Assembly: GCA_046539325.1 (NCBI GenBank)
Contig: JBKHHD010000010.1
Span: 1-23,031 of the forward strand
Source of the DNA: Candidatus Aenigmatarchaeota archaeon
GTDB taxonomy: Archaea > Aenigmatarchaeota > Aenigmatarchaeia > PWEA01
DNA: 23,031 bases
Direction of reading: 5' to 3'
In this document: one piece after another, positions 3,712 through 21,680 of the stretch
Numbering within the stretch: position 1 is the stretch's first letter
Layout: each line of letters begins with the position of its first letter
Notes under the pieces: generated by a model
The model's database searches: none
The model's input: the letters and a program-made list of their open reading frames with translations, nothing else
Told to the model about the DNA's origin: nothing
Translations under genes and position numbers: made by a program

Positions 3712-4893
3712 ATGCTCGAGGTTCTAGCATTCCTGCTTGCTGGTGTCCTCATAGGAATACTCACAGGTCTTATACCCGGTTTTCATCCCAATCTTATAGC
3801 AACGCTTGCGGTTAGCTATGCGTTCTTCTCGCCCCTCAGTTCTTCAGTGCTTCTGGTTTCTGCCGGCGTGACGAACACTTTCGTGAACTTCATACCGGCA
3901 GTTTACCTTGGTGCTCCTTCCGCTTCCACGGCACTTTCCGTTCTTCCAGGCCACAAGCTTCTTCTCAAAGGAAGGGGAAGAGAAGCTATAAGACTTACGG
4001 TTGTTGGTGGTTTAGTCTCGGTATTCCTTGCAACTGCTCTCTTCCCGGTTCTTTACTTCGGACTCGAAACAGCTTACGGGGCACTTGAATCCTACATTCC
4101 CTACCTACTTATTGGTATAATTCTCTACATGGTTTGGAAGGATAGGAGGGTGGATTCGGTATTTTTCTTCTTTCTGTCGGGTCTTCTCGGATATGTGGTT
4201 CTTGAGCACAACTTTATAGGAACTATGCACGACCTTTTTCCGCTTCTGGCTGGCCTTTTTGGTATCCCTATGCTTGTCCATTCGTTCAGAAAGGATCCAA
4301 AAATACCAATGGAAGATAGATCCATAGAACATATAAGCAGTAGGGAAGTCCTGAGAGAAGGAACTTTGGGTTCAATAGCTGGAATAATAGTTGGCTTGCT
4401 ACCAGGAATAGGTTCAGCGCAGGCAACCTACTTAGTAAGAGAGGTCACTGACGAGGACAGTGAAAGAGGGTTCATGCTTGCTATTGGTGGTGTAAACACC
4501 TCCAATATACTTGTCTCAGTTTTCGCAGTATACCTTATAGGGAAAGGAAGGAGCGGTGTAGCTGTTTCAATACAGAACCTCATCCAAAATATAACCTTCA
4601 ATGAAGTAACTGTCCTTGTCCTTACAGGATTAATATCAGCAGGCCTTGCGGCTGCAGCTGCTATATACCTTGCAAGACACAGCCTCCGCCTCTTCAGAAA
4701 CCTCAACTACAGAAAGCTCTGCATGGCTGTTATGGTTTTTATATTCTCTGTTTCAGGCCTGCTGACAGGTCTGAAGGGTCTTGCTGTAGCTGCAGTGGCT
4801 TCATTTATAGGACTTTCCTGCCTACTTTCAGGCTCAAGGAGGAGCTACCTTATGGGCTCCATACTTTTTCCTGTAATCCTGTTCTTTCTGTAG
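3712..4893 (+). CDS. Tripartite tricarboxylate transporter TctA-family (archaeal DUF112) membrane protein
   Basis: Two repeats of the GLIPG/GLLPG motif, FIPAVYLGAP, SVLPGHKLLLKGRG; highly hydrophobic. Start placed at ATG 3712 after AGGTG. Confidence 0.85.
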   Translation: MLEVLAFLLAGVLIGILTGLIPGFHPNLIATLAVSYAFFSPLSSSVLLVSAGVTNTFVNFIPAVYLGAPSASTALSVLPGHKLLLKGRGREAIRLTVVGGLVSVFLATALFPVLYFGLETAYGALESYIPYLLIGIILYMVWKDRRVDSVFFFFLSGLLGYVVLEHNFIGTMHDLFPLLAGLFGIPMLVHSFRKDPKIPMEDRSIEHISSREVLREGTLGSIAGIIVGLLPGIGSAQATYLVREVTDEDSERGFMLAIGGVNTSNILVSVFAVYLIGKGRSGVAVSIQNLIQNITFNEVTVLVLTGLISAGLAAAAAIYLARHSLRLFRNLNYRKLCMAVMVFIFSVSGLLTGLKGLAVAAVASFIGLSCLLSGSRRSYLMGSILFPVILFFL

Positions 4894-4901
4894 TGCCTAA
4901 A
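4889..4901 (+). repeat. Dispersed 14-bp motif, copy 1 (13/14: cTGTAGTGCCTAAA)
   Basis: Contains both the TAG stop of the TctA-like gene (4891-4893) and the opposite-strand TAG stop of the PAP2 gene (4897-4899). Confidence 0.9.
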
Positions 4902-8142: not shown

Positions 8143-9150
8143 TCAGATCTCAATTTCATCAACTTCCCTCGTCTTAAGGTTTACTAAAAAGGCTGTATCG
8201 TCCGTAGTGGAAAGTAATGTAACACCTTTATAGTTTGTCATAACGCTTTCATTTCCCTTAACGTGAAGTATATCAGGAACCTTCCTTATAAGGTATCTGT
8301 CCTGTAATGAATGCATCTCTAAAGGATCCAGATGTCTCTTCTTCAACAGAGCTACCAGGGCTTCCTTTGTGTCCGCTTCAAGCTCTCTTTCAGCCTTCAC
8401 TAAGGCTTCACCGTCGTGAAGAAGGATATGTAAGTCTCCAAGATCACACCTCACGGGATCTATATCCGAAAGCTCGTCAGGTTCCTCGGAGATATGAACT
8501 GCCTCTTTATCTCCTTTTTGTTCAGAAGCGCAGAAAACATAATCAGGCTCTATATCCCTTAAACGTTCCTTCACGTCATCGTTGACCTCAGAAACAAAGA
8601 GCGCAGTGAACTCCTGATCAAGTGTCGGTACGTTTCTTCTTATAGGAACGTCGGGGTTGACTATCTTACTTGGACTCATTATTACATCTTCATTCACGAT
8701 AACCTCTCCCTTAACCCCAATTACCTCGTCCTCGAGAAACTTCTCGTCTGTCTTAAGGGTAAGCTCCCCCGTCTTATCCTCAATTAAAACATTACCGTCG
8801 TCTACCTTTCTCACCATTCCTATTACGGAGGACTTTCCTGAGGATAGGTTGTTTATAGAGGATATATTTGCGTCGTCCAGCCTGTTTTTAACCTCCTCTT
8901 TGAGAAACTCAAATCTATCGAGGTAGAACTCTGTAAGTTCAGAAACATGTACTTCACCCCCTCCGCCTTCACCGTGATGAACTATCTCTGGCTTAGGGAT
9001 CTTTACTTCTTGGATATCTTTCTTAGTAATAACAAGTCCGCTTGATTCTATTACTCTTTCCATATCTTCAGTTTCCAGACTACCTGCTTCTTCTAAGACT
9101 TCTGGACTTAACAGCTTTCCCTTACTAAGGAAGTCTTCTACTGCGTTCAT
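8143..9150 (-). CDS. PolD small subunit (DP1)-like protein, shortened, nuclease motifs degenerate
   Basis: OB-fold segment SVIGMV...IEDKTG...LEDEVIGVKG, plus KKRHLDP and VPDILH are DP1-like. Metal-binding motifs SDxH, GD, GNHD and GHxH are not recognisable. Start is 9150 (TGATG overlap) or 9159. Confidence 0.8.
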   Translation of the reverse strand: MNAVEDFLSKGKLLSPEVLEEAGSLETEDMERVIESSGLVITKKDIQEVKIPKPEIVHHGEGGGGEVHVSELTEFYLDRFEFLKEEVKNRLDDANISSINNLSSGKSSVIGMVRKVDDGNVLIEDKTGELTLKTDEKFLEDEVIGVKGEVIVNEDVIMSPSKIVNPDVPIRRNVPTLDQEFTALFVSEVNDDVKERLRDIEPDYVFCASEQKGDKEAVHISEEPDELSDIDPVRCDLGDLHILLHDGEALVKAERELEADTKEALVALLKKRHLDPLEMHSLQDRYLIRKVPDILHVKGNESVMTNYKGVTLLSTTDDTAFLVNLKTREVDEIEI

Positions 9151-9296
9151 CAGAACCATTTATTTTCTGTTAAAAAACTTCCAAGGCTTTCTTTGGGAAC
9201 TATGAACTCTTTCATTCCTTCATTTTCCTTCATGAATGAAACCTTTACCTTTGAAATACCTCTGTCTTCCCATTCCTTAAGAACCATCTTTTTCAT
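9150..9296 (-). CDS. Small hypothetical protein, 48 aa (MKKMVLKEWEDRGISKVKVSFMKENEGMKEFIVPKESLGSFLTENKWF); not in the ORF track
   Basis: Translated by hand. Starts 1 nt after the cdc6 stop, and its TGA overlaps the DP1-like ATG (TGATG), filling the gap exactly. Confidence 0.65.
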   Translation of the reverse strand: MKKMVLKEWEDRGISKVKVSFMKENEGMKEFIVPKESLGSFLTENKWF

Positions 9297-9297
9297 T

Positions 9298-10509
9298 TTA
9301 TCCAAAATAATATTTTTCTTTGAGAAGGTTTTTGACCTGGTTTTTCACGTTTGTAGATACTGCAGGCTTTATCATCCTCGTCCTTCCGTAACGTCCCTGT
9401 GAAGTCACCTGGGCCTGAATTATTCCAAGCATGTCAAGCTCAGAAATTAAGTCTGAAACGCGTCTCTGTGTGAGTGGCTCGAGGCCTGAGGTCTTACATA
9501 CCTCTTCGTAGAGTGAATGAACCTCTCCTGTCTGAACCATCTCTTTTCTCTCTTCAAACAAGTTTATTATAGACCAAAGGACGGCCTGTGACTGCCTGGG
9601 CTGGCTTTCAACAACTTCGAGAATCTTGTTCCTATCTATCTCATCTTCAGCCCTGTCGACGTGCTTTGCTTCAACTTTCTTCGCATCTGATCTTTCCGCA
9701 AGCTCTCCAGAAACCCTAAGCAGGTCTATAGCTCTTCTGGCATCGCCATGCTCCTGCGCTGCAAGAGCGGCACATTTCTTCACCACTCCACCCCCAACAA
9801 CATCGTCGTGAAAAGCTTCATCGGCTCTTCCCTGAAGTATATCTTCAAGCTGTTTGGCGTTGTAAGGGCTGAACAGTATCTCTTCCTCAGAAAGGCTTGA
9901 CCTAACTCTAGGATCCAGATCGTTTGTAAAGGAAAGATCGTTGGAGATTCCAACAAGGCTCAGCTTCGAGTTCTCCAACTCTTCGTTAACCCTCGTTAAG
10001 TTATAGAGGAACTCGTCACCTGTCTTCTCAACAAGCGAATCAATTTCATCAAGAATTAAGACAAGAATTCTCTTCTCTTCATCAAGAGCGTCGAAAAATC
10101 TCTCGTAAACCTCATCCGTAGGTAGGCCCGTTGAAGGAACATCCTTGCCGAACTTCCTAGCCAGTTCAGCTATAAGCCTATACTCTGTATCGGCTACTTT
10201 TCTCAGCTTACAGTTGAGGTATACGATCTTAACTTCGGTCCCGTTCTCCTCACTCTTCTCCCTCAGTTTCTCTGTAACCCGTTTTATTACTGCACTCTTT
10301 CCTGTTCCCGTCTTACCGTAAACAAATAAATTTGACGGCTTGTTACCCTTTAAGGAAGGCGCGAGAAGAGAAGCTATAGATCTTATTTCTCTATTCCTGT
10401 GCGGAAGATTTTCAGGATTGTAGTTTGTAGAGAGAAGATCCTTATCGTAGAATAGACTCTCCTTTTCCATGTACTCGTCAAAAATTGTATCCAATGATTG
10501 CTGCTGCAT
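9298..10509 (-). CDS. cdc6: Orc1/Cdc6 replication initiator
   Basis: Walker A GKTGTGKS, Walker B ILDEID, sensor-2 GDARRAIDLLR, winged-helix tail SQGRYGRTR. Start at ATG 10509 after GGGGTG RBS. Confidence 0.97.
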   Translation of the reverse strand: MQQQSLDTIFDEYMEKESLFYDKDLLSTNYNPENLPHRNREIRSIASLLAPSLKGNKPSNLFVYGKTGTGKSAVIKRVTEKLREKSEENGTEVKIVYLNCKLRKVADTEYRLIAELARKFGKDVPSTGLPTDEVYERFFDALDEEKRILVLILDEIDSLVEKTGDEFLYNLTRVNEELENSKLSLVGISNDLSFTNDLDPRVRSSLSEEEILFSPYNAKQLEDILQGRADEAFHDDVVGGGVVKKCAALAAQEHGDARRAIDLLRVSGELAERSDAKKVEAKHVDRAEDEIDRNKILEVVESQPRQSQAVLWSIINLFEERKEMVQTGEVHSLYEEVCKTSGLEPLTQRRVSDLISELDMLGIIQAQVTSQGRYGRTRMIKPAVSTNVKNQVKNLLKEKYYFG

Positions 10510-10573
10510 GTAAACACCCCACTCAATCCCCACACCCCAAAACCGGGGACGTTTTGTTGGTAAAGATAATTTA

Positions 10574-10590
10574 GGTTTTATATAAAAAGC
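10574..10590 (-). promoter_or_regulatory. TATA box of cdc6
   Basis: TTTTATATAAAA at 10576-10587, directly beside the first ORB-like element. Confidence 0.55.
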
Positions 10591-10592
10591 TA

Positions 10593-10899
10593 TTTGCACG
10601 TGAAACGAGGGGGTCCTTAATATGAATACAGAAACCCCTTTATTTCAGGTGGAGAAAGTTTCTACTTGAAATCAGGGGGTATTTCCTTAACGTGGAAAAT
10701 ATTACACCCCTTTATTTCACGTGGAGTATTAAATGAAATTATATGAAGATGAAAAATTTTGAACTCTGAGGCTCTCACACCCTTATTTCATGTGGAAAAT
10801 AATCCTTGTATGTATGTATAAAAACGTATAACAATGTTATAATGAAAGAAAAATCCCACCCACCTCCTGATTTTTACTTTCCAAAAGAAATCGGGGTGT
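10593..10899. promoter_or_regulatory. Archaeal replication origin (oriC) with ORB elements and an AT-rich unwinding region
   Basis: Six 22-bp elements resembling TTCCAnnTGAAAnnnGGGGT: 10593-10614(+), 10634-10655(-), 10659-10680(+), 10706-10727(-), 10777-10798(-), 10878-10899(+). AT-rich stretch at about 10800-10853. Directly upstream of cdc6. Confidence 0.9.
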
Positions 10900-10930
10900 C
10901 AGGACCTTTGTTTTTCTTTAAAGGAAAAAA

Positions 10931-10944
10931 ATGTAGTGCCTAAA
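10931..10944 (+). repeat. Dispersed 14-bp motif, copy 2 (ATGTAGTGCCTAAA)
   Basis: Exact copy; supplies the TAG stop (10940-10942) of the 49-aa ORF; inverted partner of copy 3. Confidence 0.95.
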
Positions 10945-11089
10945 AACTATCAAGTTCTTCTTTCGAGACTTCACCTTTCGGGCCTAAATACTTGAGAACT
11001 TCCTGCCTAATAGAATCCCCTTCTCTCACACTCTTCACGAGATAGAGATACTTATTCCCGTTTATTTCCTTTTCACGTATGAAGGCCAT
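10940..11089 (-). CDS. Small putative DNA-binding protein, 49 aa ([49 protein letters not shown]); not in the ORF track
   Basis: Translated by hand. The pattern FIRxKxINGxxYxYLVxSxRxGxxxRQxxLKYLG resembles the beta-strand N-terminal domain of IS1634-type transposases and small archaeal DNA-binding proteins (recognition only, not searched). TATA-like TTAAATA on the minus strand at 11128-11134. Confidence 0.8.
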
Positions 11090-11096
11090 AGGCTCT

Positions 11097-11110
11097 TTTA
11101 GGCACTACAT
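11097..11110 (-). repeat. Dispersed 14-bp motif, copy 3
   Basis: TTTAGGCACTACAT, exact reverse complement; lies 7 nt upstream of the ATG of the 49-aa ORF. Confidence 0.95.
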
Positions 11111-11134
11111 ACTTTTCAAAGTAAGGGTATTTAA

Positions 11135-11156
11135 TTTCAAAATGAAATATGGGTAT
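11135..11156 (+). promoter_or_regulatory. Degenerate ORB-like element
   Basis: TTTCAAAATGAAATATGGGTAT aligns with the origin ORB TTTCCACATGAAATAAGGGTGT with 4 mismatches. Confidence 0.5.
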
Positions 11157-11193
11157 AAACTTCTTTTTACTACAGAACAGTTCCTGGACAGAG

Positions 11194-11207
11194 TTTAGGC
11201 ACTACAT
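11194..11207 (-). repeat. Dispersed 14-bp motif, copy 4
   Basis: TTTAGGCACTACAT, exact; shares one base with the pyrI TGA stop. Confidence 0.95.
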
Positions 11208-11659
11208 CATATATCTAACTCAAAGCTTGTGAACTTCCTTTCACAGTACTCACACTGTAAAAGTACTGGCTCCCTCTCCCTTACCTTGAAAGCTGCTTTC
11301 AGCGGTTCATCAGTGTTAGTCACACACTGTGGGTTAGGACAGCTTAAAAATCCTTGAATATTTTGAGGAAGGTCAAGTCTATCCTTCTCGAGAACCTCGT
11401 AGTCCTCTATTATATTAACCGTAGCTTCTGGAGCCAGTATAGCAACGGACTTCACCTCCCTTTCCTTCAACTTTCTACCTTCAACCTTCACTATATCTTT
11501 CCTTTTCATCTTTGAACTTTTCACGTTCATCAATAAAGAAACTGTTTTCTCTGAGTCGCCGTTGAGGCCAAGAAGGCTAAGTATATCCAGACCTCTGCCT
11601 GCTGGTATATGGTCTATTACTGTTCCATCGGAAATCTTACTTACCTTGAGATCAGGCAT
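11207..11659 (-). CDS. pyrI: Aspartate carbamoyltransferase regulatory chain
   Basis: GTVIDHIPAG, KDIVKVE, and Zn ligands CPNPQC...CEYCE. Confidence 0.96.
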   Translation of the reverse strand: MPDLKVSKISDGTVIDHIPAGRGLDILSLLGLNGDSEKTVSLLMNVKSSKMKRKDIVKVEGRKLKEREVKSVAILAPEATVNIIEDYEVLEKDRLDLPQNIQGFLSCPNPQCVTNTDEPLKAAFKVREREPVLLQCEYCERKFTSFELDI

Positions 11660-12554
11660 CTATATCAACTCCAAGTAGCTCAAGAATTATGCCCATTCTC
11701 GTAGGAACTCCGTTTTTCGCCTGCTCGAAGTAATGGGCCTGTGGAAGCTCATCCACTCCAGGCTTTATCTCACCAACCCTTGGTAGTGGGTGCATAAGGG
11801 TACTATTATCCTTCATTTCCTCTACTCTTTCCTTGTCAAGTATGAATGCGTCCTTAACCCTCTCGTACTCCTGCTTGTCAGGGAACCTCTCCTTCTGTAT
11901 CCTTGTCGCGTAGAGCACGTCTAAGTCCTTGATCCTCATCTCCGTAGTCTCCTCCTCTACACCTACCTCCCTTACGATATTTCTCGGCATCTTAGTTTCC
12001 TCCGGCGAGATCAGTCTTATATCCACGTCGTAATTATCAAGCGCCTCTGCTAAAGAATGGACAGTCCTTCCGTACTTCAGATCTCCCATCATCCCTACCT
12101 TCAGTCCATCGATCCTCCCAAACTCCTTCTTTATAGTGTACAGATCCAAGAGCGTCTGTGTAGGATGCTGGTTTGCTCCATCCCCGCCGTTGATCACGGG
12201 AACGCCCGTCTTTTCAGCCAGCATTCTTGCCGTTCCTTCGTAAGGACTTCTTATAACACAGATGTCTGTGTAGCCGGCTACAACTATGCCCGTGTCTGTG
12301 ATGTTCTCACCCTTCTCTATGGAGCTCACTTCTTCTGTCAGATTTATTGTAGAACCACCAAGACGCATCATAGCCGTTTCAAACGAAAGCCTTGTTCTCG
12401 TCGAAGGTTCTAGGAATATAGTGGAAAGTACGTGTCCAGGAAGAACTTCAGCAGCCTTTCTTTTACTTATTTTTTCGGCCTGAGAAGCCTTGGAAAGAAA
12501 AGACTCTATGTCGTCGCGTGTCAGGTCGTTTATCGATATTAAATTTTCCTTCAC
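11652..12554 (-). CDS. pyrB: Aspartate carbamoyltransferase catalytic chain
   Basis: FLEPSTRTRLSFE, HPTQTLLD, GDLKYGRTVHSL, TRIQKERF and HPLPR motifs. Confidence 0.97.
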   Translation of the reverse strand: MKENLISINDLTRDDIESFLSKASQAEKISKRKAAEVLPGHVLSTIFLEPSTRTRLSFETAMMRLGGSTINLTEEVSSIEKGENITDTGIVVAGYTDICVIRSPYEGTARMLAEKTGVPVINGGDGANQHPTQTLLDLYTIKKEFGRIDGLKVGMMGDLKYGRTVHSLAEALDNYDVDIRLISPEETKMPRNIVREVGVEEETTEMRIKDLDVLYATRIQKERFPDKQEYERVKDAFILDKERVEEMKDNSTLMHPLPRVGEIKPGVDELPQAHYFEQAKNGVPTRMGIILELLGVDIDA

Positions 12555-12625
12555 ACACGACCCTAGATAAGTTGTATTTTCATTTATTTAAGCTTTTAAT
12601 ACCCTCGGCACAAAAAGGATAAACC

Positions 12626-12964
12626 ATGATGCCGAATCTAGATCCGTCGAAGATCCAGCAGATGATGGAGAAGATGGGAATGGATACCGAGGAGATAGAC
12701 GCCGTAGAGGTCGAAATAAAAACGAAGACAGGTAAACTTCTTGTAAAGAACCCTTCAGTCATGAAGGTCAACGTGAAAGGAAAAGAGATGCTTCAGGTAG
12801 AAGGAGAGTTTGTAGAGACCGAAGGCGAAGAAAAGGAAATTGAGTTCACAGAGGAAGACGTCAAGACAGTCGTAGAGAAGACTGGAGCTTCAGAGGAAGA
12901 AGCGAAGAAGGCGCTAGAGGAAGAAGGCGACCTTGCTATGGCGGTCATGAAGCTAAAGGGTTAA
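12626..12964 (+). CDS. nac: Nascent polypeptide-associated complex protein (archaeal NAC)
   Basis: MMEKMGM N-terminus, NAC domain, and UBA-like tail EEDVKTVVEKTGASEEEAKKALEE-GDLAMAVMKL. Confidence 0.93.
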   Translation: MMPNLDPSKIQQMMEKMGMDTEEIDAVEVEIKTKTGKLLVKNPSVMKVNVKGKEMLQVEGEFVETEGEEKEIEFTEEDVKTVVEKTGASEEEAKKALEEEGDLAMAVMKLKG

Positions 12965-13010
12965 ACAACCCCGCCACTTTTTTATTTCTCTCCGTTAATG
13001 CTTAAACCGG

Positions 13011-13700
13011 ATGATATCCGTAGTCCTTCCTACGTACAATGAGAGGAAGAATTTAGAGGAAGTTGTTGAAAGGATCTGCTCCTGTATTGAAGGTGACTTC
13101 GAGATAGTTGTTGTTGACGATGATTCTCCCGACGGGACCTGGGAACTTGCAGAGGAACTTTCTTCAGAATACAAGAACCTACGCTCAGTAAGAAGAAGAG
13201 AGGACAGGGGCCTTGCGAAGTCAGTGGTCCGAGGGTTTCAAGAATCAAAGGGTGGAAGGATAGTTGTGATGGACGCAGACCTTCAGCACCCACCCGAAAA
13301 GATTCCAGAGCTCGTAGAGGCACTGGAGGACAACGACCTAGCTGTTGGTTCCCGTAAGGTCGAAGGGGGTGAGGTGGAAAACTGGCCCTGGCATCGTGAG
13401 TTTGTTTCATTTGGCGCAGAGAGGATAGCCCGTTTTTTTCTTCAGGACGTTAATAGCGTGAAAGATATAATGTCAGGATTTTTTGCTGTAAGGAAAGAGG
13501 TGGTGGAGAACGTAAATTTCAACCCCATTGGCTACAAGATACTTCTGGAAATTCTCGTGAAGTGTGATTACTCATCTCTGAAGGAGATTCCTTATACGTT
13601 CAAGGACAGAGAAACGGGATCCAGTTCCTTGGGCTTCAGGCAGTATATAACGTATCTCAGACATCTGTTCAGGCTTTGTATTTATGATTTATTCTGTTGA
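13011..13700 (+). CDS. GT2 polyprenol-phosphate mannosyltransferase (DPM1-like)
   Basis: SVVLPTYNE, VVDDDSPDGT, VMDADLQHPPE, SGFFA and GYKILLE motifs. Confidence 0.9.
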   Translation: MISVVLPTYNERKNLEEVVERICSCIEGDFEIVVVDDDSPDGTWELAEELSSEYKNLRSVRRREDRGLAKSVVRGFQESKGGRIVVMDADLQHPPEKIPELVEALEDNDLAVGSRKVEGGEVENWPWHREFVSFGAERIARFFLQDVNSVKDIMSGFFAVRKEVVENVNFNPIGYKILLEILVKCDYSSLKEIPYTFKDRETGSSSLGFRQYITYLRHLFRLCIYDLFC

Positions 13701-14984: not shown

Positions 14985-14998
14985 ATGTAGTGCCTAAA
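14985..14998 (+). repeat. Dispersed 14-bp motif, copy 5
   Basis: Exact; begins 1 nt after the ribK TAA stop. Confidence 0.95.
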
Positions 14999-15889: not shown

Positions 15890-15903
15890 ATGTAGTGCCT
15901 AAA
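15890..15903 (+). repeat. Dispersed 14-bp motif, copy 6
   Basis: Exact; lies in the 30-bp gap between the convergent galU and phosphodiesterase stops. Confidence 0.95.
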
Positions 15904-17901: not shown

Positions 17902-18792
17902 TCACCTTCTATTTCTAATTACCGGGTTTATATTTTCAAAGAAGACGTCGACATTGGATTTTGATACCCAGACATTGTTTTGCTGCTCATTGCATTTTAC
18001 ACCCAATTTCCCTAGTACATCAGCAAGAAATTCAATTGATTTTTCATCATAAGAACAAATTCTTGGAGACCCCGAAGGATGTATATTTCCATCAGACTCA
18101 TACCTTCCTTCAATATACTTCCATGCTATTTCCTCTGATTGAAGAAGCCATTGTTTTTTATCTTCTCTTGTAAAATTTTCTACCCATTCAATTAGTTTTT
18201 TTGAGGAAGCCCAAACAGTTTCTCTGTCCCTTCCACTTCTTTTTCCTCTGCCAGGATTCAGCCCAATTTTTCCCAGGTATTTAGAAAACTTGTCAGCAAA
18301 GTCAGAAGATTTTACTTCTAAACCAATAGTCGATTTTTTATCATGAAAACCATCACCATCTATAACGCCAAGGACGTAAGCCATTTCTTTCTTCTTATTA
18401 AATTTTAATTCATTGGTATTTTTCTTGGCGAATTTCCTCAATCTTTCTACAACTTCTTCACTTTTATTGTATTCAGCTGCAGATCTAGCAACACCTAACT
18501 TCATTGCCTTCAGTTTAATAGCCTCCCAATTTCTTTTGGGTAGTAGTTCCAACATTTTTTCTTTCCCGGCCTTGAGATAGTTTTCTTTAAGGATTTCCTC
18601 CTCTTCATCAGTCCATTTATCATGTGACCGAGTCTCAATACCGAAGCCCTTTAGTTTCCTTGAGATTAAGGGTTGTGAGACCCCAAATTTATCTGCTACT
18701 TCACCTTGGGTCATACCTCTTTCCTTATAAAGTTCAATAAGCGTATCCTTTGATAGATTGCCCTTCTCTTCTGGTGTTTTTATATTGTTCAT
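17902..18792 (-). mobile_element. LAGLIDADG homing endonuclease gene with N-terminal HTH and Myb-like repeat, inserted between cysD and cysN
   Basis: Two LAGLIDADG motifs, YVLGVIDGDG and YIEGRYESDG. N-terminal MTQGEVADKFGVSQPLISRKL (HTH) and KWTDEEEEILKENY. Lys-rich and visibly more AT-rich than its neighbours. Confidence 0.85.
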
Positions 18793-19902: not shown

Positions 19903-19916
19903 ATGTAGTGCCTAAA
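19903..19916 (+). repeat. Dispersed 14-bp motif, copy 7
   Basis: Exact; 1 nt beyond the stop of the 60-aa RHH gene. Same ATGTAGTGCCTAAAATCA context as copy 6. Confidence 0.95.
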
Positions 19917-21069: not shown

Positions 21070-21680
21070 GCTTTCACCAGGTGCGAAACAACGTGGAAGA
21101 ACTGCCAGAAGTGCTCCCACATAACTCTTCTTGGTTTGTCTATCTTTTTAGTATTTGCGGGAACCTCTCCTATCCTCGCACCCTTGTTCTTCGCCTCCAG
21201 GGCAAAGGTCCCGCAGGTACATGTAGTGCCTAAATCCATCTCCTTCGCAAGTTCCTTTGTCAATGCCCTGAACCCGGTCCCTGTATCGCTGACGTCCACT
21301 TTGAAGTTGGCAAGCCAGTTCAGAAACCTCTCCGAAGGCCTGGGTATAACTTCACGTGCCCCGAACACCAGATCCTTTTCACCTTCCACAACGGGCTCGA
21401 CCATCCTCTTCACGTCCTCCGGCTTGTGCTCGCCGTCGGCGTCCATCGTGACTATTACATCGCCGCTCGCTTCCTTGAACCCGGTTTTTATACCGTCTAT
21501 ATATCCATTGCCTCTATTCTCAATAACTTTAGCTCCGGCCTCCTTCGCCTCCTTGATAGTTCTGTCTTCGGAACCATCATCCACGACCAGTATTTCATAT
21601 TCTTCAGAAAGAGAATCCACTACCTCGCCTACCCTCTCTTCTTCGTTGTACGCGGGAATAACTACCGAGACGTCAGCCAT
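21066..21680 (-). CDS. GT2 glycosyltransferase
   Basis: SVVIPAYNEE, VVDDGSEDRT, TMDADGEH and DTGTGFRA motifs. Confidence 0.9.
   Translation of the reverse strand: MADVSVVIPAYNEEERVGEVVDSLSEEYEILVVDDGSEDRTIKEAKEAGAKVIENRGNGYIDGIKTGFKEASGDVIVTMDADGEHKPEDVKRMVEPVVEGEKDLVFGAREVIPRPSERFLNWLANFKVDVSDTGTGFRALTKELAKEMDLGTTCTCGTFALEAKNKGARIGEVPANTKKIDKPRRVMWEHFWQFFHVVSHLVKA
21221..21234 (+). repeat. Dispersed 14-bp motif, copy 8 (intragenic)
   Basis: Exact; lies inside the GT2 CDS, where it encodes part of D-L-G-T-T-C on the minus strand. Confidence 0.93.

Follow-up and report, generated by a model that had tools for sequence, protein, structure and literature searches.

ORF49, a predicted small motif-binding protein encoded beside the putative replication origin of an Aenigmatarchaeota archaeon

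Beside the putative replication origin of a Candidatus Aenigmatarchaeota archaeon lies a short gene, ORF49, whose product is probably a stand-alone motif-binding module, likely to repress its own gene and to act locally at motif copies dispersed over the genome. The gene was studied in a stretch of 23,031 nucleotides, referred to here as the window. An original prediction, made from the letters of the window, had proposed a DNA-binding mini-protein, domesticated from a transposase, that represses itself, binds the same motif chromosome-wide and may serve replication, segregation or chromosome organization. The observation behind this prediction was confirmed, and its interpretation is partly supported.

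ORF49 is a conserved gene adjoining oriC and cdc6

The origin region is marked by an orc1/cdc6 initiator gene (9298..10599, minus strand; Pfam Cdc6_C, E=4.7e-29, and Cdc6_lid, E=7.2e-25) and by a putative oriC (10594..10905, without strand assignment) that combines ORB-like repeats, some of them weaker and inverted, with an A+T-rich stretch. The ORB-like direct repeats, three of 21 nt each, occupy positions 10634-10654, 10706-10726 and 10777-10797, and the ORB-like 21-mer has no other place in the genome within four mismatches; the A+T-rich stretch (10800-10850) is 78% A+T. An A+T-rich stretch with ORB repeats next to orc1/cdc6 is the architecture given for archaeal origins in PMC4010727, and it is present here at the sequence level; an oriC beside cdc6 is plausible at this position.

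ORF49 (10940..11089, minus strand), taken from the ORF list, encodes 49 aa between an ATG at 11087-11089 and a TAG at 10940-10942, and its listed peptide equals the one quoted in the original prediction. It lies 35 nt from the outermost ORB-like element. The gene is single-copy in its genome and adjoins oriC/cdc6 in six of six genomes, with an orientation that varies among them. Ten homologues of 49-57 aa share 69-84% identity. ORF49 was found in six of the nine genomes of the family; of the three misses, two are genomes whose cdc6 contig breaks off 215 and 371 nt from cdc6 and one is a genome without a cdc6 match, and the gene is thus present in all six related genomes with the origin region assembled. 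Among orthologues dN ranges over 0.04-0.30. Of the 15 pairs, 14 have saturated dS, and the remaining one, the closest, gives a dN/dS of 0.11. Because orthologues occupy all six assembled regions and this one ratio is low with dS saturated elsewhere, ORF49 is judged a real, conserved gene under purifying selection, in line with the original claim of a complete gene. A cluster look-up gave no names for the five orthologue clusters.

A motif copy is fixed between the TATA-like box and the start codon

Two inverted motif copies stand at the ends of the gene. The first, ATGTAGTGCCTAAAA (10931..10945, minus strand), overlaps the ORF49 stop and lies ~25-35 nt from the outermost ORB-like element. The second, TTTTAGGCACTACAT (11096..11110, plus strand), is its exact reverse complement; read towards the gene it is ATGTAGTGCCTAAAA, and 6-7 nt separate its end from the ATG. 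This second copy is the proposed operator. The inverted pair has 22-nt arms that are 91% complementary, with a perfect 15-nt core. A TATA-like box, TTTGAAAA on the gene strand (11113..11120, minus strand), placed by alignment, directly abuts the proximal copy, and a distal copy, TTTAGGCACTACAT (11194..11207, plus strand), lies 83 nt beyond 11110 and abuts the pyrI stop codon; an orthologue of this distal copy follows pyrI at the related locus L016. The ORF, the 15-bp inverted repeats, of which one was said to supply the stop and the other to precede the ATG closely, and the third copy were all found where the original prediction had placed them.

Comparison of the orthologues separates the two inverted copies. 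A 13-nt sequence, TGTAGTGCCTAAA, is invariant before ORF49 in all six aligned species, even though synonymous sites have reached saturation, and ends 6-9 nt from the ATG; in an alignment anchored at the ATG the six orthologues have TTTGAAAA or TTTAAAA(G) at the TATA-like position, where Fic-type relatives carry TTTATAAATA or TTTAAATA. The site thus falls between the TATA-like box and the ATG in six of six orthologues and in the Fic-type relatives. The stop-overlapping copy, in contrast, occurs only in G000, G004 and G007. The bracketing described in the original prediction therefore stands for its promoter side, conserved in all six species, but not for its stop side, and the bracket is not a conserved feature of ORF49, the stop-side copy being present in three of six species only. 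Two loci of the ORF49 family, L002 and L003, have a single upstream motif copy only, and at L019 the proximal copy is in the opposite orientation. Sequencing runs that contain the locus or part of it comprise four DNA runs of one study and no RNA run.

Diverged relatives carry their own motif at the same promoter position

Diverged archaeal members of the family each have a related motif of their own (TGTAGTGGTTAA, TGTAGTACATAA, GTGCCCGTAA, TGTGGGGGTAAA) between the TATA-like box and the ATG, and in most cases this motif recurs once upstream. In Fic-fused relatives from Woesearchaeota, Nanoarchaeota and Methanosarcinales, TGTAGTGGTTAA or a one-mismatch variant stands at this place in seven of seven cases (the Fic-type site is also given as TGTAGTGGTTAAC), and 64-66 nt upstream, on the far side of the TATA box, lies a second copy; these copies are direct, not inverted. 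Other subfamilies have ATGTAGTACATAA (direct pair), GTGCCCGTAA (inverted pair), TGTGGGGGTAAA (inverted pair), TGTGCCCGTAT or TGTGGACATA at the same position. In 12 of 20 family genes, vs 1 of 88 other ORFs at the same loci, the 32 nt before the ATG contain a 10-mer that is exactly repeated between -200 and -33, and the other eight family promoters lack such a repeat; the 20 promoters are non-independent (six orthologues and seven close Fic relatives), and about 6-9 subfamilies carry the argument. The covariation of motif and protein, which the original prediction had named as a check, takes the form of a motif that differs by module subfamily at a constant promoter position. The motif accordingly appears to be tied to the N-terminal module and not to lineage, and the motifs of diverged relatives lend strong, if indirect, support to the binding of the motif at the module gene's own promoter.

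The archaeal Fic proteins, together with one nucleotidyltransferase, have modules 41-52% identical to that of ORF49 and a similar promoter layout, in which the TATA box abuts a TGT-type motif whose end is ~8 nt from the ATG, and a further copy lies upstream. They differ from ORF49 in carrying an enzymatic domain and in having the exact motif at their own locus alone, whereas ORF49 is the module by itself and its motif is dispersed. Since, in five of five Fic-type genomes, the exact motif has no copies outside the locus of the gene itself, self-regulation looks like the ancestral use of the module and dispersal like a novelty of the stand-alone form.

Published work already includes Fic-HTH DNA-binding domain fusions with proposed autoregulation (in passages of PMC2686095), and the passages of that paper on archaea, DNA binding and N-termini do not contain the beta-sheet module. 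A search of openly accessible literature listings and abstracts returned no description of the module or the motif.

The module is widespread and predicted to form a small beta-sheet

The module matches 1396 cluster representatives at E<=1e-3. It forms the N-terminus of IS1634 transposases, archaeal Fic proteins, one nucleotidyltransferase and HTH proteins, and it also occurs as many stand-alone small proteins. The resemblance to the N-terminus of IS1634 transposases noted in the original prediction is well founded: by tblastn, ORF49 and IS1634 copies are 48-59% identical over ~36-45 residues (residues 3-38 up to 3-47), and two of the matched bacterial proteins (544 and 554 aa) belong to NCBIfam transpos_IS1634 (NF033559; E=4e-111 and 1e-108) and carry DDE_Tnp_1. 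The NF033559 model begins only at residue 26-27 of these transposases, so the N-terminal module itself is unmodelled there. The homologous N-terminal module is common to both, but the transposases add a DDE domain (NF033559, ~480 positions), while ORF49 has none, is single-copy and is fixed beside the origin. The further step taken in the original prediction, that ORF49 was domesticated from a transposase, does not follow, the module being equally N-terminal in Fic, nucleotidyltransferase and HTH proteins and frequent in stand-alone small proteins. In the transposases the module presumably targets DNA. Transposases, Fic proteins and the nucleotidyltransferase would all be proteins in need of a DNA-targeting or autoregulatory part, which we count in favour of the DNA-binding reading. 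Elements present in several copies in three alphaproteobacterial genomes served to define the ends of IS1634, which read CCCGACTTGAACAGTG and CCGATCTTCGACAGTG; the left ends share with TGTAGTG only an ACAGTG core.

The AF2 model of ORF49 (pLDDT 93.1) has strands at residues 2-9, 12-23 and 26-37 and a helix at 43-48, a confidently predicted three-stranded antiparallel beta-sheet with a short helix. Searches of Pfam, NCBIfam and PHROGs gave sub-threshold results only (DUF5772, E=0.13; phrog_33620, E=0.19; no row in NCBIfam), the best match of a PDB profile search (E=0.22) was noise, and the ESM Atlas returned only small-protein clusters without names. Foldseek against the PDB had no match at E<=0.001, and the wide fold search with VIA-align reached a best Z of 4.0, with no chain at Z>=5; neither result allows ORF49 to be assigned to a fold family. 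Profile search and structure prediction, both proposed in the original prediction, yielded a confident AF2 fold but no named family. Consistent with the absence of a catalytic domain noted there, the protein has 49 aa and no transposase match in Pfam or NCBIfam.

Arm-type integrase DNA-binding domains (3jtz, 3rmp) and PC4/Pur-alpha-like binders also combine a three-stranded sheet with a helix, and both fold searches place them among their top rows, with scores no better than noise (Foldseek E=0.6-1, Z=3.4-3.6). For 3jtz, Foldseek gave E=0.6 and VIA-align Z=3.4 with an rmsd of 2.4 over 43 residues, and unrelated rows score equally; the PDB profile search found no sequence relation between these domains and ORF49. 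A two-copy complex prediction scored 0.00 and speaks neither for nor against a homodimer.

The motif recurs at conserved places throughout the family genomes

In the window, the 13-mer with up to two mismatches is present in eight copies (seven exact), compared with a shuffle mean of 0.46 and a maximum of 3; since none of 100 shuffles reaches eight, the repeats at the ORF49 locus are not due to chance. The whole 715,179-bp genome contains 22 sites for the 14-mer with up to two mismatches (13 exact), eight of them on the 23-kb origin contig. The exact 12-mer is seen 19 times against ~0.1 expected; 8 of the 19 fall on the origin contig, which is 3.2% of the genome (P=6e-8), and 13 of the 19 are found outside long ORFs, with coding sequence making up 90% of the genome (P=1e-9). 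Each of the nine family genomes holds 8-20 copies, the 52 other genomes of the class hold one in total, and the reversed 12-mer, used as a control, is absent from the nine family genomes. The dispersed motif of the original prediction is thereby extended to a family-specific set that co-occurs with the gene. Within 10 kb of the gene lie 7 of 19 sites in G000, 6 of 19 in G001, 3 of 14 in G004, 3 of 10 in G005, 4 of 14 in G007 and 5 of 17 in G008, with ~3% expected.

Dispersed sites keep their position between species despite saturated dS and are mostly non-coding; they lie for the most part in very short spacers at gene ends, before promoters or after tRNA genes. The dispersed copies of the window, all on the minus strand, mostly follow this habit. 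A copy with one mismatch (4888..4901) spans the stop codons of TctA and of PAP2, two genes that converge there, and has orthologues at L014 and L016. The copy at 14985..14998 lies 1 nt after the riboflavin kinase stop and upstream of a nucleotidyl transferase gene (orthologues at L015, L016 and L018), that at 15890..15903 lies where the nucleotidyl transferase gene and the phosphodiesterase gene converge, between their ends (orthologues at L016 and L018), and that at 19903..19916 follows the stop of a small conserved ORF by 1 nt (orthologue in G001, L103). A further copy (21221..21234) lies inside a GT2 glycosyltransferase gene, where it encodes L-G-T-T, and G001 has an orthologous coding copy (L103). 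Many copies in the genomes are likewise at convergent gene ends or within genes, encoding LGTT, and a promoter role is not possible at such places. The genes that flank the sites share no functional theme (HerA, HxlR, IscU, ThiI, SF1 helicase, GAPDH, and sugar and lipid enzymes). On contig C2, a motif cluster is adjoined by a 348-aa P-loop protein with Walker-A-level matches only and without a PDB relative.

Only the stand-alone family has dispersed sites. A homologue from another lineage, at L019, has a module 70% identical to that of ORF49 and the same motif in six copies within 14 kb; no cdc6 was found within the 14 kb examined.

A model of ORF49 action and its alternatives

ORF49 would belong, as a stand-alone protein, to a widespread type of small DNA-binding module that has so far gone undescribed, and it most likely recognizes the asymmetric site (T)TTTAGGCACTACAT. 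The gene is probably leaderless, with one site between the TATA-like box and the start codon, and ORF49 bound to this site would keep RNA polymerase off the promoter and so repress its own synthesis. In the Aenigmatarchaeota-like family the same site is fixed at ~10-20 further places per genome, about a third of them within 10 kb of oriC/cdc6, beside the ORF49 gene, and there bound ORF49 would most likely act locally on transcription, as a repressor, an activator or a roadblock. An additional role at the origin may exist. Archaeal promoter-occluding repressors bind an operator located downstream of the TATA box and ahead of the transcription start, and those known are HTH, wHTH or RHH proteins. 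The ORF49 site would resemble such operators in lying directly 3' of a TATA-like box and before the start codon, whereas the protein differs from these repressors in being a 49-residue beta-sheet module without a Pfam or PDB relative.

A second reading, which we consider possible but doubtful, is that ORF49 on its clustered sites organizes the origin region. It would mark the oriC-proximal region in a centromere-like or origin-regulating manner, in functional analogy to ParB-parS, SegB or origin-side regulatory repeats, and could do so in addition to autoregulation. The short distance between ORF49 and the outermost ORB-like element and the constant neighbourhood of oriC/cdc6 in six genomes, despite differing orientation, are in its favour, as are the 8 of 19 sites on the origin contig, the 3-7 sites within 10 kb of the gene in six genomes, and the replication genes nearby (PolB, a PolD-small-subunit-like gene and cdc6). 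Sets of parS sites resemble those of ORF49 in number (10-20) and in gene-end placement, which also counts for it. Both ParB-parS and SegB, like ORF49 as putative binder, have few identical sites around the origin and a binder gene beside the origin, flanked by sites. The likeness ends with the proteins and the site. ParB has an HTH/CTPase domain, a palindromic site and a partner Walker ATPase, none of which is seen for ORF49 in Pfam/NCBIfam, the AF2 model or the window proteins; SegB has an RHH fold (strand-helix-helix), whereas the ORF49 model has three strands and one short helix. No ParA/SegA-type ATPase was present among the 20 window proteins scanned, and TTTAGGCACTACAT is asymmetric, that is, not its own reverse complement.

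Two in every three sites fall in other parts of the genome. As the six genomes are related and retain a common gene order, their clustering amounts to a single observation, and, the contigs being unordered, site distances from oriC hold within contigs only. The L019 locus has a motif cluster but no cdc6 in the 14 kb covered, so the clustering could be tied to the gene and not to the origin. A replication or segregation role as in the original prediction, for which gene position and site clustering are the evidence, is possible but doubtful. An elaborated version, in which ORF49 encoded at oriC coats the site cluster and controls firing or anchors the origin for segregation, would constitute a minimal origin-domain system, with a module recruited from the self-regulating part of Fic or transposase genes in a genome-reduced DPANN host without ParA/SegA-type machinery; we hold this to be unlikely.

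It is decidedly improbable that the motif belongs to another factor or process (an HxlR-type regulator, a terminator-associated signal or a recombination site), with ORF49 as one of its targets and perhaps no DNA binder at all. Many copies directly follow stop codons or lie 35-45 nt past tRNA genes, and a T run precedes them, as would fit a 3'-end signal; an HxlR-type regulator gene, a possible rival binder, is flanked by two motif copies, and the fold searches named no DNA-binding family for ORF49. Yet copies occur in both orientations relative to the upstream genes, which a strand-specific RNA signal would not allow. The motif also varies with the module subfamily at a fixed promoter place, across distant archaeal phyla and unrelated C-terminal domains, and in all five Fic-type genomes the exact motif is found only at the module-bearing gene.

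An element acting at the RNA level, in which the inverted copies pair in the transcript as a 15-bp stem around ORF49 and serve processing, stability or circularization, would agree with the perfect 15-nt inverted repeat in G000 and with copies that overlap or directly follow the stop in G004 and G007. It is very improbable given that the stop-side copy is absent from three of six species, the Fic-type copies are direct, and the upstream copy, abutted by the TATA-like box, is probably untranscribed; Rfam and tRNA scans of the window found nothing. Finally, a 180-bp unit that is a MITE, the refuting case named in the original prediction, or a decayed IS1634 element, with the motif as terminal inverted repeats, is suggested by the 15-bp repeats and the homology to a transposase N-terminus but has a negligible chance, and present-day mobility is excluded: only the 14-mer is repeated and not the 180-bp unit, the ORF is single-copy, keeps its position beside oriC/cdc6 in six of six species and is under purifying selection, the other motif copies are solitary, orthologous between species and immobile, and the IS1634 ends appear unlike the motif.

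Implications

If ORF49 is a stand-alone motif-binding module that represses its own gene and acts locally elsewhere, a widespread small DNA-binding module, with 1396 cluster representatives and without a Pfam model or solved structure, would be defined, and it would account for the N-terminal part of IS1634 transposases as well as of numerous archaeal Fic and nucleotidyltransferase proteins. Each module gene would bring its own cognate site at a fixed place, which would make the recognition code directly testable. DPANN archaea, which have very few recognizable regulators, would gain a candidate for a global, site-specific factor whose target set is small and conserved. The control of archaeal replication initiation is described in passages of PMC4010727 as poorly understood, and a conserved binder gene with a site cluster at oriC would give a handle on it, even if ORF49 has no role at the origin.

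ORF49 lies beside a putative replication origin

The 715-kb genome is assembled in 10 contigs, one of them the 23-kb window, whose genes and elements are ordered SecD/F, TctA, PAP2, PolB, a PolD-small-subunit-like gene, cdc6, ORB-like repeats, ORF49, pyrI, pyrB, NAC and onwards. The three ORB-like repeats (21 nt each, at 10634, 10706 and 10777) occur nowhere else in the genome and are followed by a stretch of 78% A+T. Together with cdc6, they match the general archaeal origin layout, outlined in PMC4010727 as ORBs flanking an A+T-rich region beside cdc6, and mark a putative oriC. The end of ORF49, a minus-strand gene of 49 codons with an ATG start (10940-11089), is separated from the last ORB-like element by 35 nt. 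A motif copy, ATGTAGTGCCTAAAA (10931-10945), recurs as its reverse complement at 11096-11110; the left repeat contains the TAG stop of ORF49, the right repeat lies 6-7 nt from its ATG, and a third copy is found at 11194-11207. The original prediction had described these repeats, the third copy and the ORF, and re-reading the sequence with a repeat and ORF listing reproduced their coordinates exactly.

The PolD-like gene between PolB and cdc6 (8143-9159) encodes a 338-aa protein with zero Pfam matches and a partial match to DNA polymerase II (PolD) small-subunit models that falls far under cut-offs (E=9e-22, 78 bits vs 445). At 17902-18792, flanked by genes for an aIF2-gamma-like GTPase and a PAPS reductase, a 296-aa protein gives LAGLIDADG_3 and weak HTH matches.

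ORF49 is a conserved gene

ORF49 is a real gene, with 10 homologues of 49-57 aa sharing 69-84% identity and 20 invariant positions. In 14 of 15 pairs synonymous sites have reached saturation, and dN/dS is 0.11 in the sole computable pair. Whole-genome searches located the gene in 6 of 9 family genomes; because in two of the misses the cdc6 contig stops short, 215 and 371 nt away from cdc6, and a cdc6 match was not found either in the third, this amounts to 6/6 genomes in which the region is assembled.

The motif is non-random and lineage-specific

The window holds 8 motif copies; shuffled sequences average 0.46. Allowing up to 2 mismatches, the 14-mer has 22 sites in the genome (13 exact, 5 with one mismatch, 4 with two), 8 of them on the window contig. 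The exact 12-mer occurs 19 times (~0.1 expected): 13 copies avoid the long ORFs, although coding sequence fills 90% of the genome (P=1e-9), and 8 lie on the 3.2% of the genome represented by the window contig (P=6e-8). Among 61 related genomes, all nine of one family carry 8-20 exact 12-mers each, and the other 52 carry 1 in total; the reversed-motif control gave 0 in the nine family genomes.

Fold and distribution of the module

AlphaFold2, run with a 62-row alignment, predicted for ORF49, with a pLDDT of 93.1, an antiparallel sheet of three long strands (2-9, 12-23, 26-37) plus one short helix (43-48). Pfam, NCBIfam and PHROG returned no family match, and neither a solved relative by sequence nor a convincing fold match was found; arm-type integrase domains and PC4/Pur-alpha-like binders appeared among the top fold-search rows at noise level. 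A profile search of 1.84 billion representatives retrieved 1396 proteins at E<=1e-3 that carry this unit of three-stranded beta-sheet and helix (the module), mostly N-terminally; among the best 150, 61 have at most 90 aa and 89 are longer. Most of 40 longer members scanned lack a known domain; Fic was recognized in three, and ParB-like, HTH, DnaB_2 and other domains in single members.

In bacteria, the module stands at the head of multi-copy IS1634 transposases, and two such proteins match NF033559 (E=1e-108 and 4e-111), bearing out the likeness to IS1634 transposase N-termini originally recognized; domestication of ORF49 from a transposase, proposed at the same time, is not established. In alphaproteobacterial genomes (loci L038-L093), IS1634-family elements of ~1.9 kb are present in many copies per genome, with the ends CCCGA(C/G)TTGAACAGTG / CCCAACTTCAACAGC and CCGATCTTCGACAGTG / CCGATCTTCGACACCG; most copies of one group are identical only from the transposase ATG onwards, and a few share a longer upstream stretch.

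Module genes carry related motifs at their promoters

In all six ORF49 orthologues, 13 nt (TGTAGTGCCTAAA) do not vary; TTTGAAAA or TTTAAAA adjoins them on the 5' side, and 6-9 nt separate the motif end from the ATG. Seven Fic-fused proteins from Woesearchaeota, Nanoarchaeota and Methanosarcinales (305-318 aa, one only 216 aa at a contig end; 46-52% identity to the module) are encoded by genes that all carry TGTAGTGGTTAA, exact or with one mismatch, at a distance of 8-9 nt from the ATG, with TTTATAAATA or TTTAAATA directly 5' and a second direct copy 64-66 nt upstream. Their promoters (L022, L024, L027, L028, L030, L032, L082) are nearly identical across distant archaeal phyla, in the order site, ~52 nt with the TATA box, site, 8-9 nt, ATG; L024 and L032 have a second such site pair 3' of the Fic stop.

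Members of other families bear different yet related words at the equivalent promoter position: ATGTAGTACATAA as a direct pair, GTGCCCGTAA as an inverted pair that flanks the TATA box and recurs 3' of the stop, TGTGGGGGTAAA as an inverted pair, and TGTGCCCGTAT, TGTGGACATA and TTGTTGTGCCTAAC. When a non-A+T-rich 10-mer from the 32 nt upstream of the ATG was sought at -200 to -33, it recurred exactly in 12 of 20 module-family genes, promoters that are not independent, with ~6-9 subfamilies bearing the argument, vs 1 of 88 other ORFs (>=150 aa) in the identical loci. The co-variation of motif and protein for which the original prediction had called was thus found, as related but different motifs across module subfamilies. 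Because these genes share only the N-terminal module, their C-terminal parts being Fic, nucleotidyltransferase, HTH or nothing, and because motif and protein co-vary, the most economical reading is that the module binds the motif. Lying as it does between a TATA-like box and a start that is probably leaderless, the site is placed where an archaeal repressor would exclude RNA polymerase.

Dispersed sites in the stand-alone family

In five Fic-type genomes (archaea whose Fic proteins begin with the module), the exact motif is confined to the gene's own locus (2, 2, 3, 2 and 4 copies), which suggests self-regulation as the module's common use; one-mismatch matches in these genomes are no commoner than those of the reversed control. 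The stand-alone family is distinguished by chromosome-wide dispersal of the motif. Its dispersed copies, in both orientations, are stable; positions at which copies are orthologous between species include the convergent TctA/PAP2 ends, with both stop codons within the motif; positions 3' of riboflavin kinase, a phosphodiesterase gene and pyrI; positions 5' of NAC and of HerA; the IscU/ThiI spacer; and positions 35-45 nt 3' of three different tRNA genes. The flanking genes revealed no common theme. A MITE is excluded, since ORF49 has no paralogue in the genome and the dispersed copies are orthologous rather than mobile. Comparison across genomes supports the core of the original prediction: a putative mini-protein that recognises a specific sequence, present on its own promoter and again across the genome.

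Several copies have individual features. The tRNA-linked ones (contig C6 of the window's genome, 22001-22122; L098, L099, L111) always read TTTAGGCACTACA in the tRNA direction. Intragenic copies (window 21221-21234; C5 4818 and 7504; L094, L095, L103, L110) are orthologous too, encoding L-G-T-T in several genes and, on the opposite strand, D-V-V-P-K in another. On C2 (60966-62081; L116 966-2081), three copies fall in a mostly non-coding stretch of 1.1 kb; the outer two have ~30 nt of additional flanking sequence in common (cactattttct..tggaTTTTAGGCACTACAG) and so form direct repeats bounding the segment; adjoining it is a gene for a 348-aa P-loop protein that matches MobB and CbiA/ParA at Walker-A level only. 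On C1 (51462-52127; L112), a 130-aa HxlR-family regulator gene lies between two copies, the downstream one with 2 mismatches, and HerA is transcribed divergently from the upstream one. In the relative G001, the ends of C3 and C8 (L096, L100) are identical up to a motif copy, where the two contigs probably abut.

Sites cluster around the putative origin

In each of six genomes, ORF49 has 3-7 of the 10-19 exact sites within 10 kb, and one motif copy is always found some 20-40 nt from an ORB-like element. The direction of ORF49 relative to oriC varies: it faces oriC in the window's genome (G000) and the relatives G004 and G007, and the opposite way in G001, G005 and G008. In both arrangements the left and right motif copies have the same orientation on the chromosome as before (window 10931-11110 compared with loci L002-L006 and L014-L018). 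This is the pattern that an inversion between copies would leave, and it looks like a past inversion between the inverted motif copies within the family.

Site clustering and ORB proximity fit an origin-linked role without establishing one, and the replication or segregation function first proposed is likewise not established: the compared genomes are kin with conserved gene order, a partner ATPase was not seen, and another archaeon (L019) has a 160-aa homologue and the same motif six times in 14 kb, without cdc6 in those 14 kb. That homologue adjoins TBP, a UvrD-type helicase-nuclease, a restriction-modification pair and a resolvase; the serine-recombinase (Resolvase) gene and a divergent 432-aa ORF (10834-13022), both adjoining the homologue, have motif copies on either side, at 11489 and 13012. 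Taken together, the comparisons point to ORF49, built on an undescribed module, as a putative site-specific and autoregulatory DNA binder with an unusual, origin-centred set of sites.
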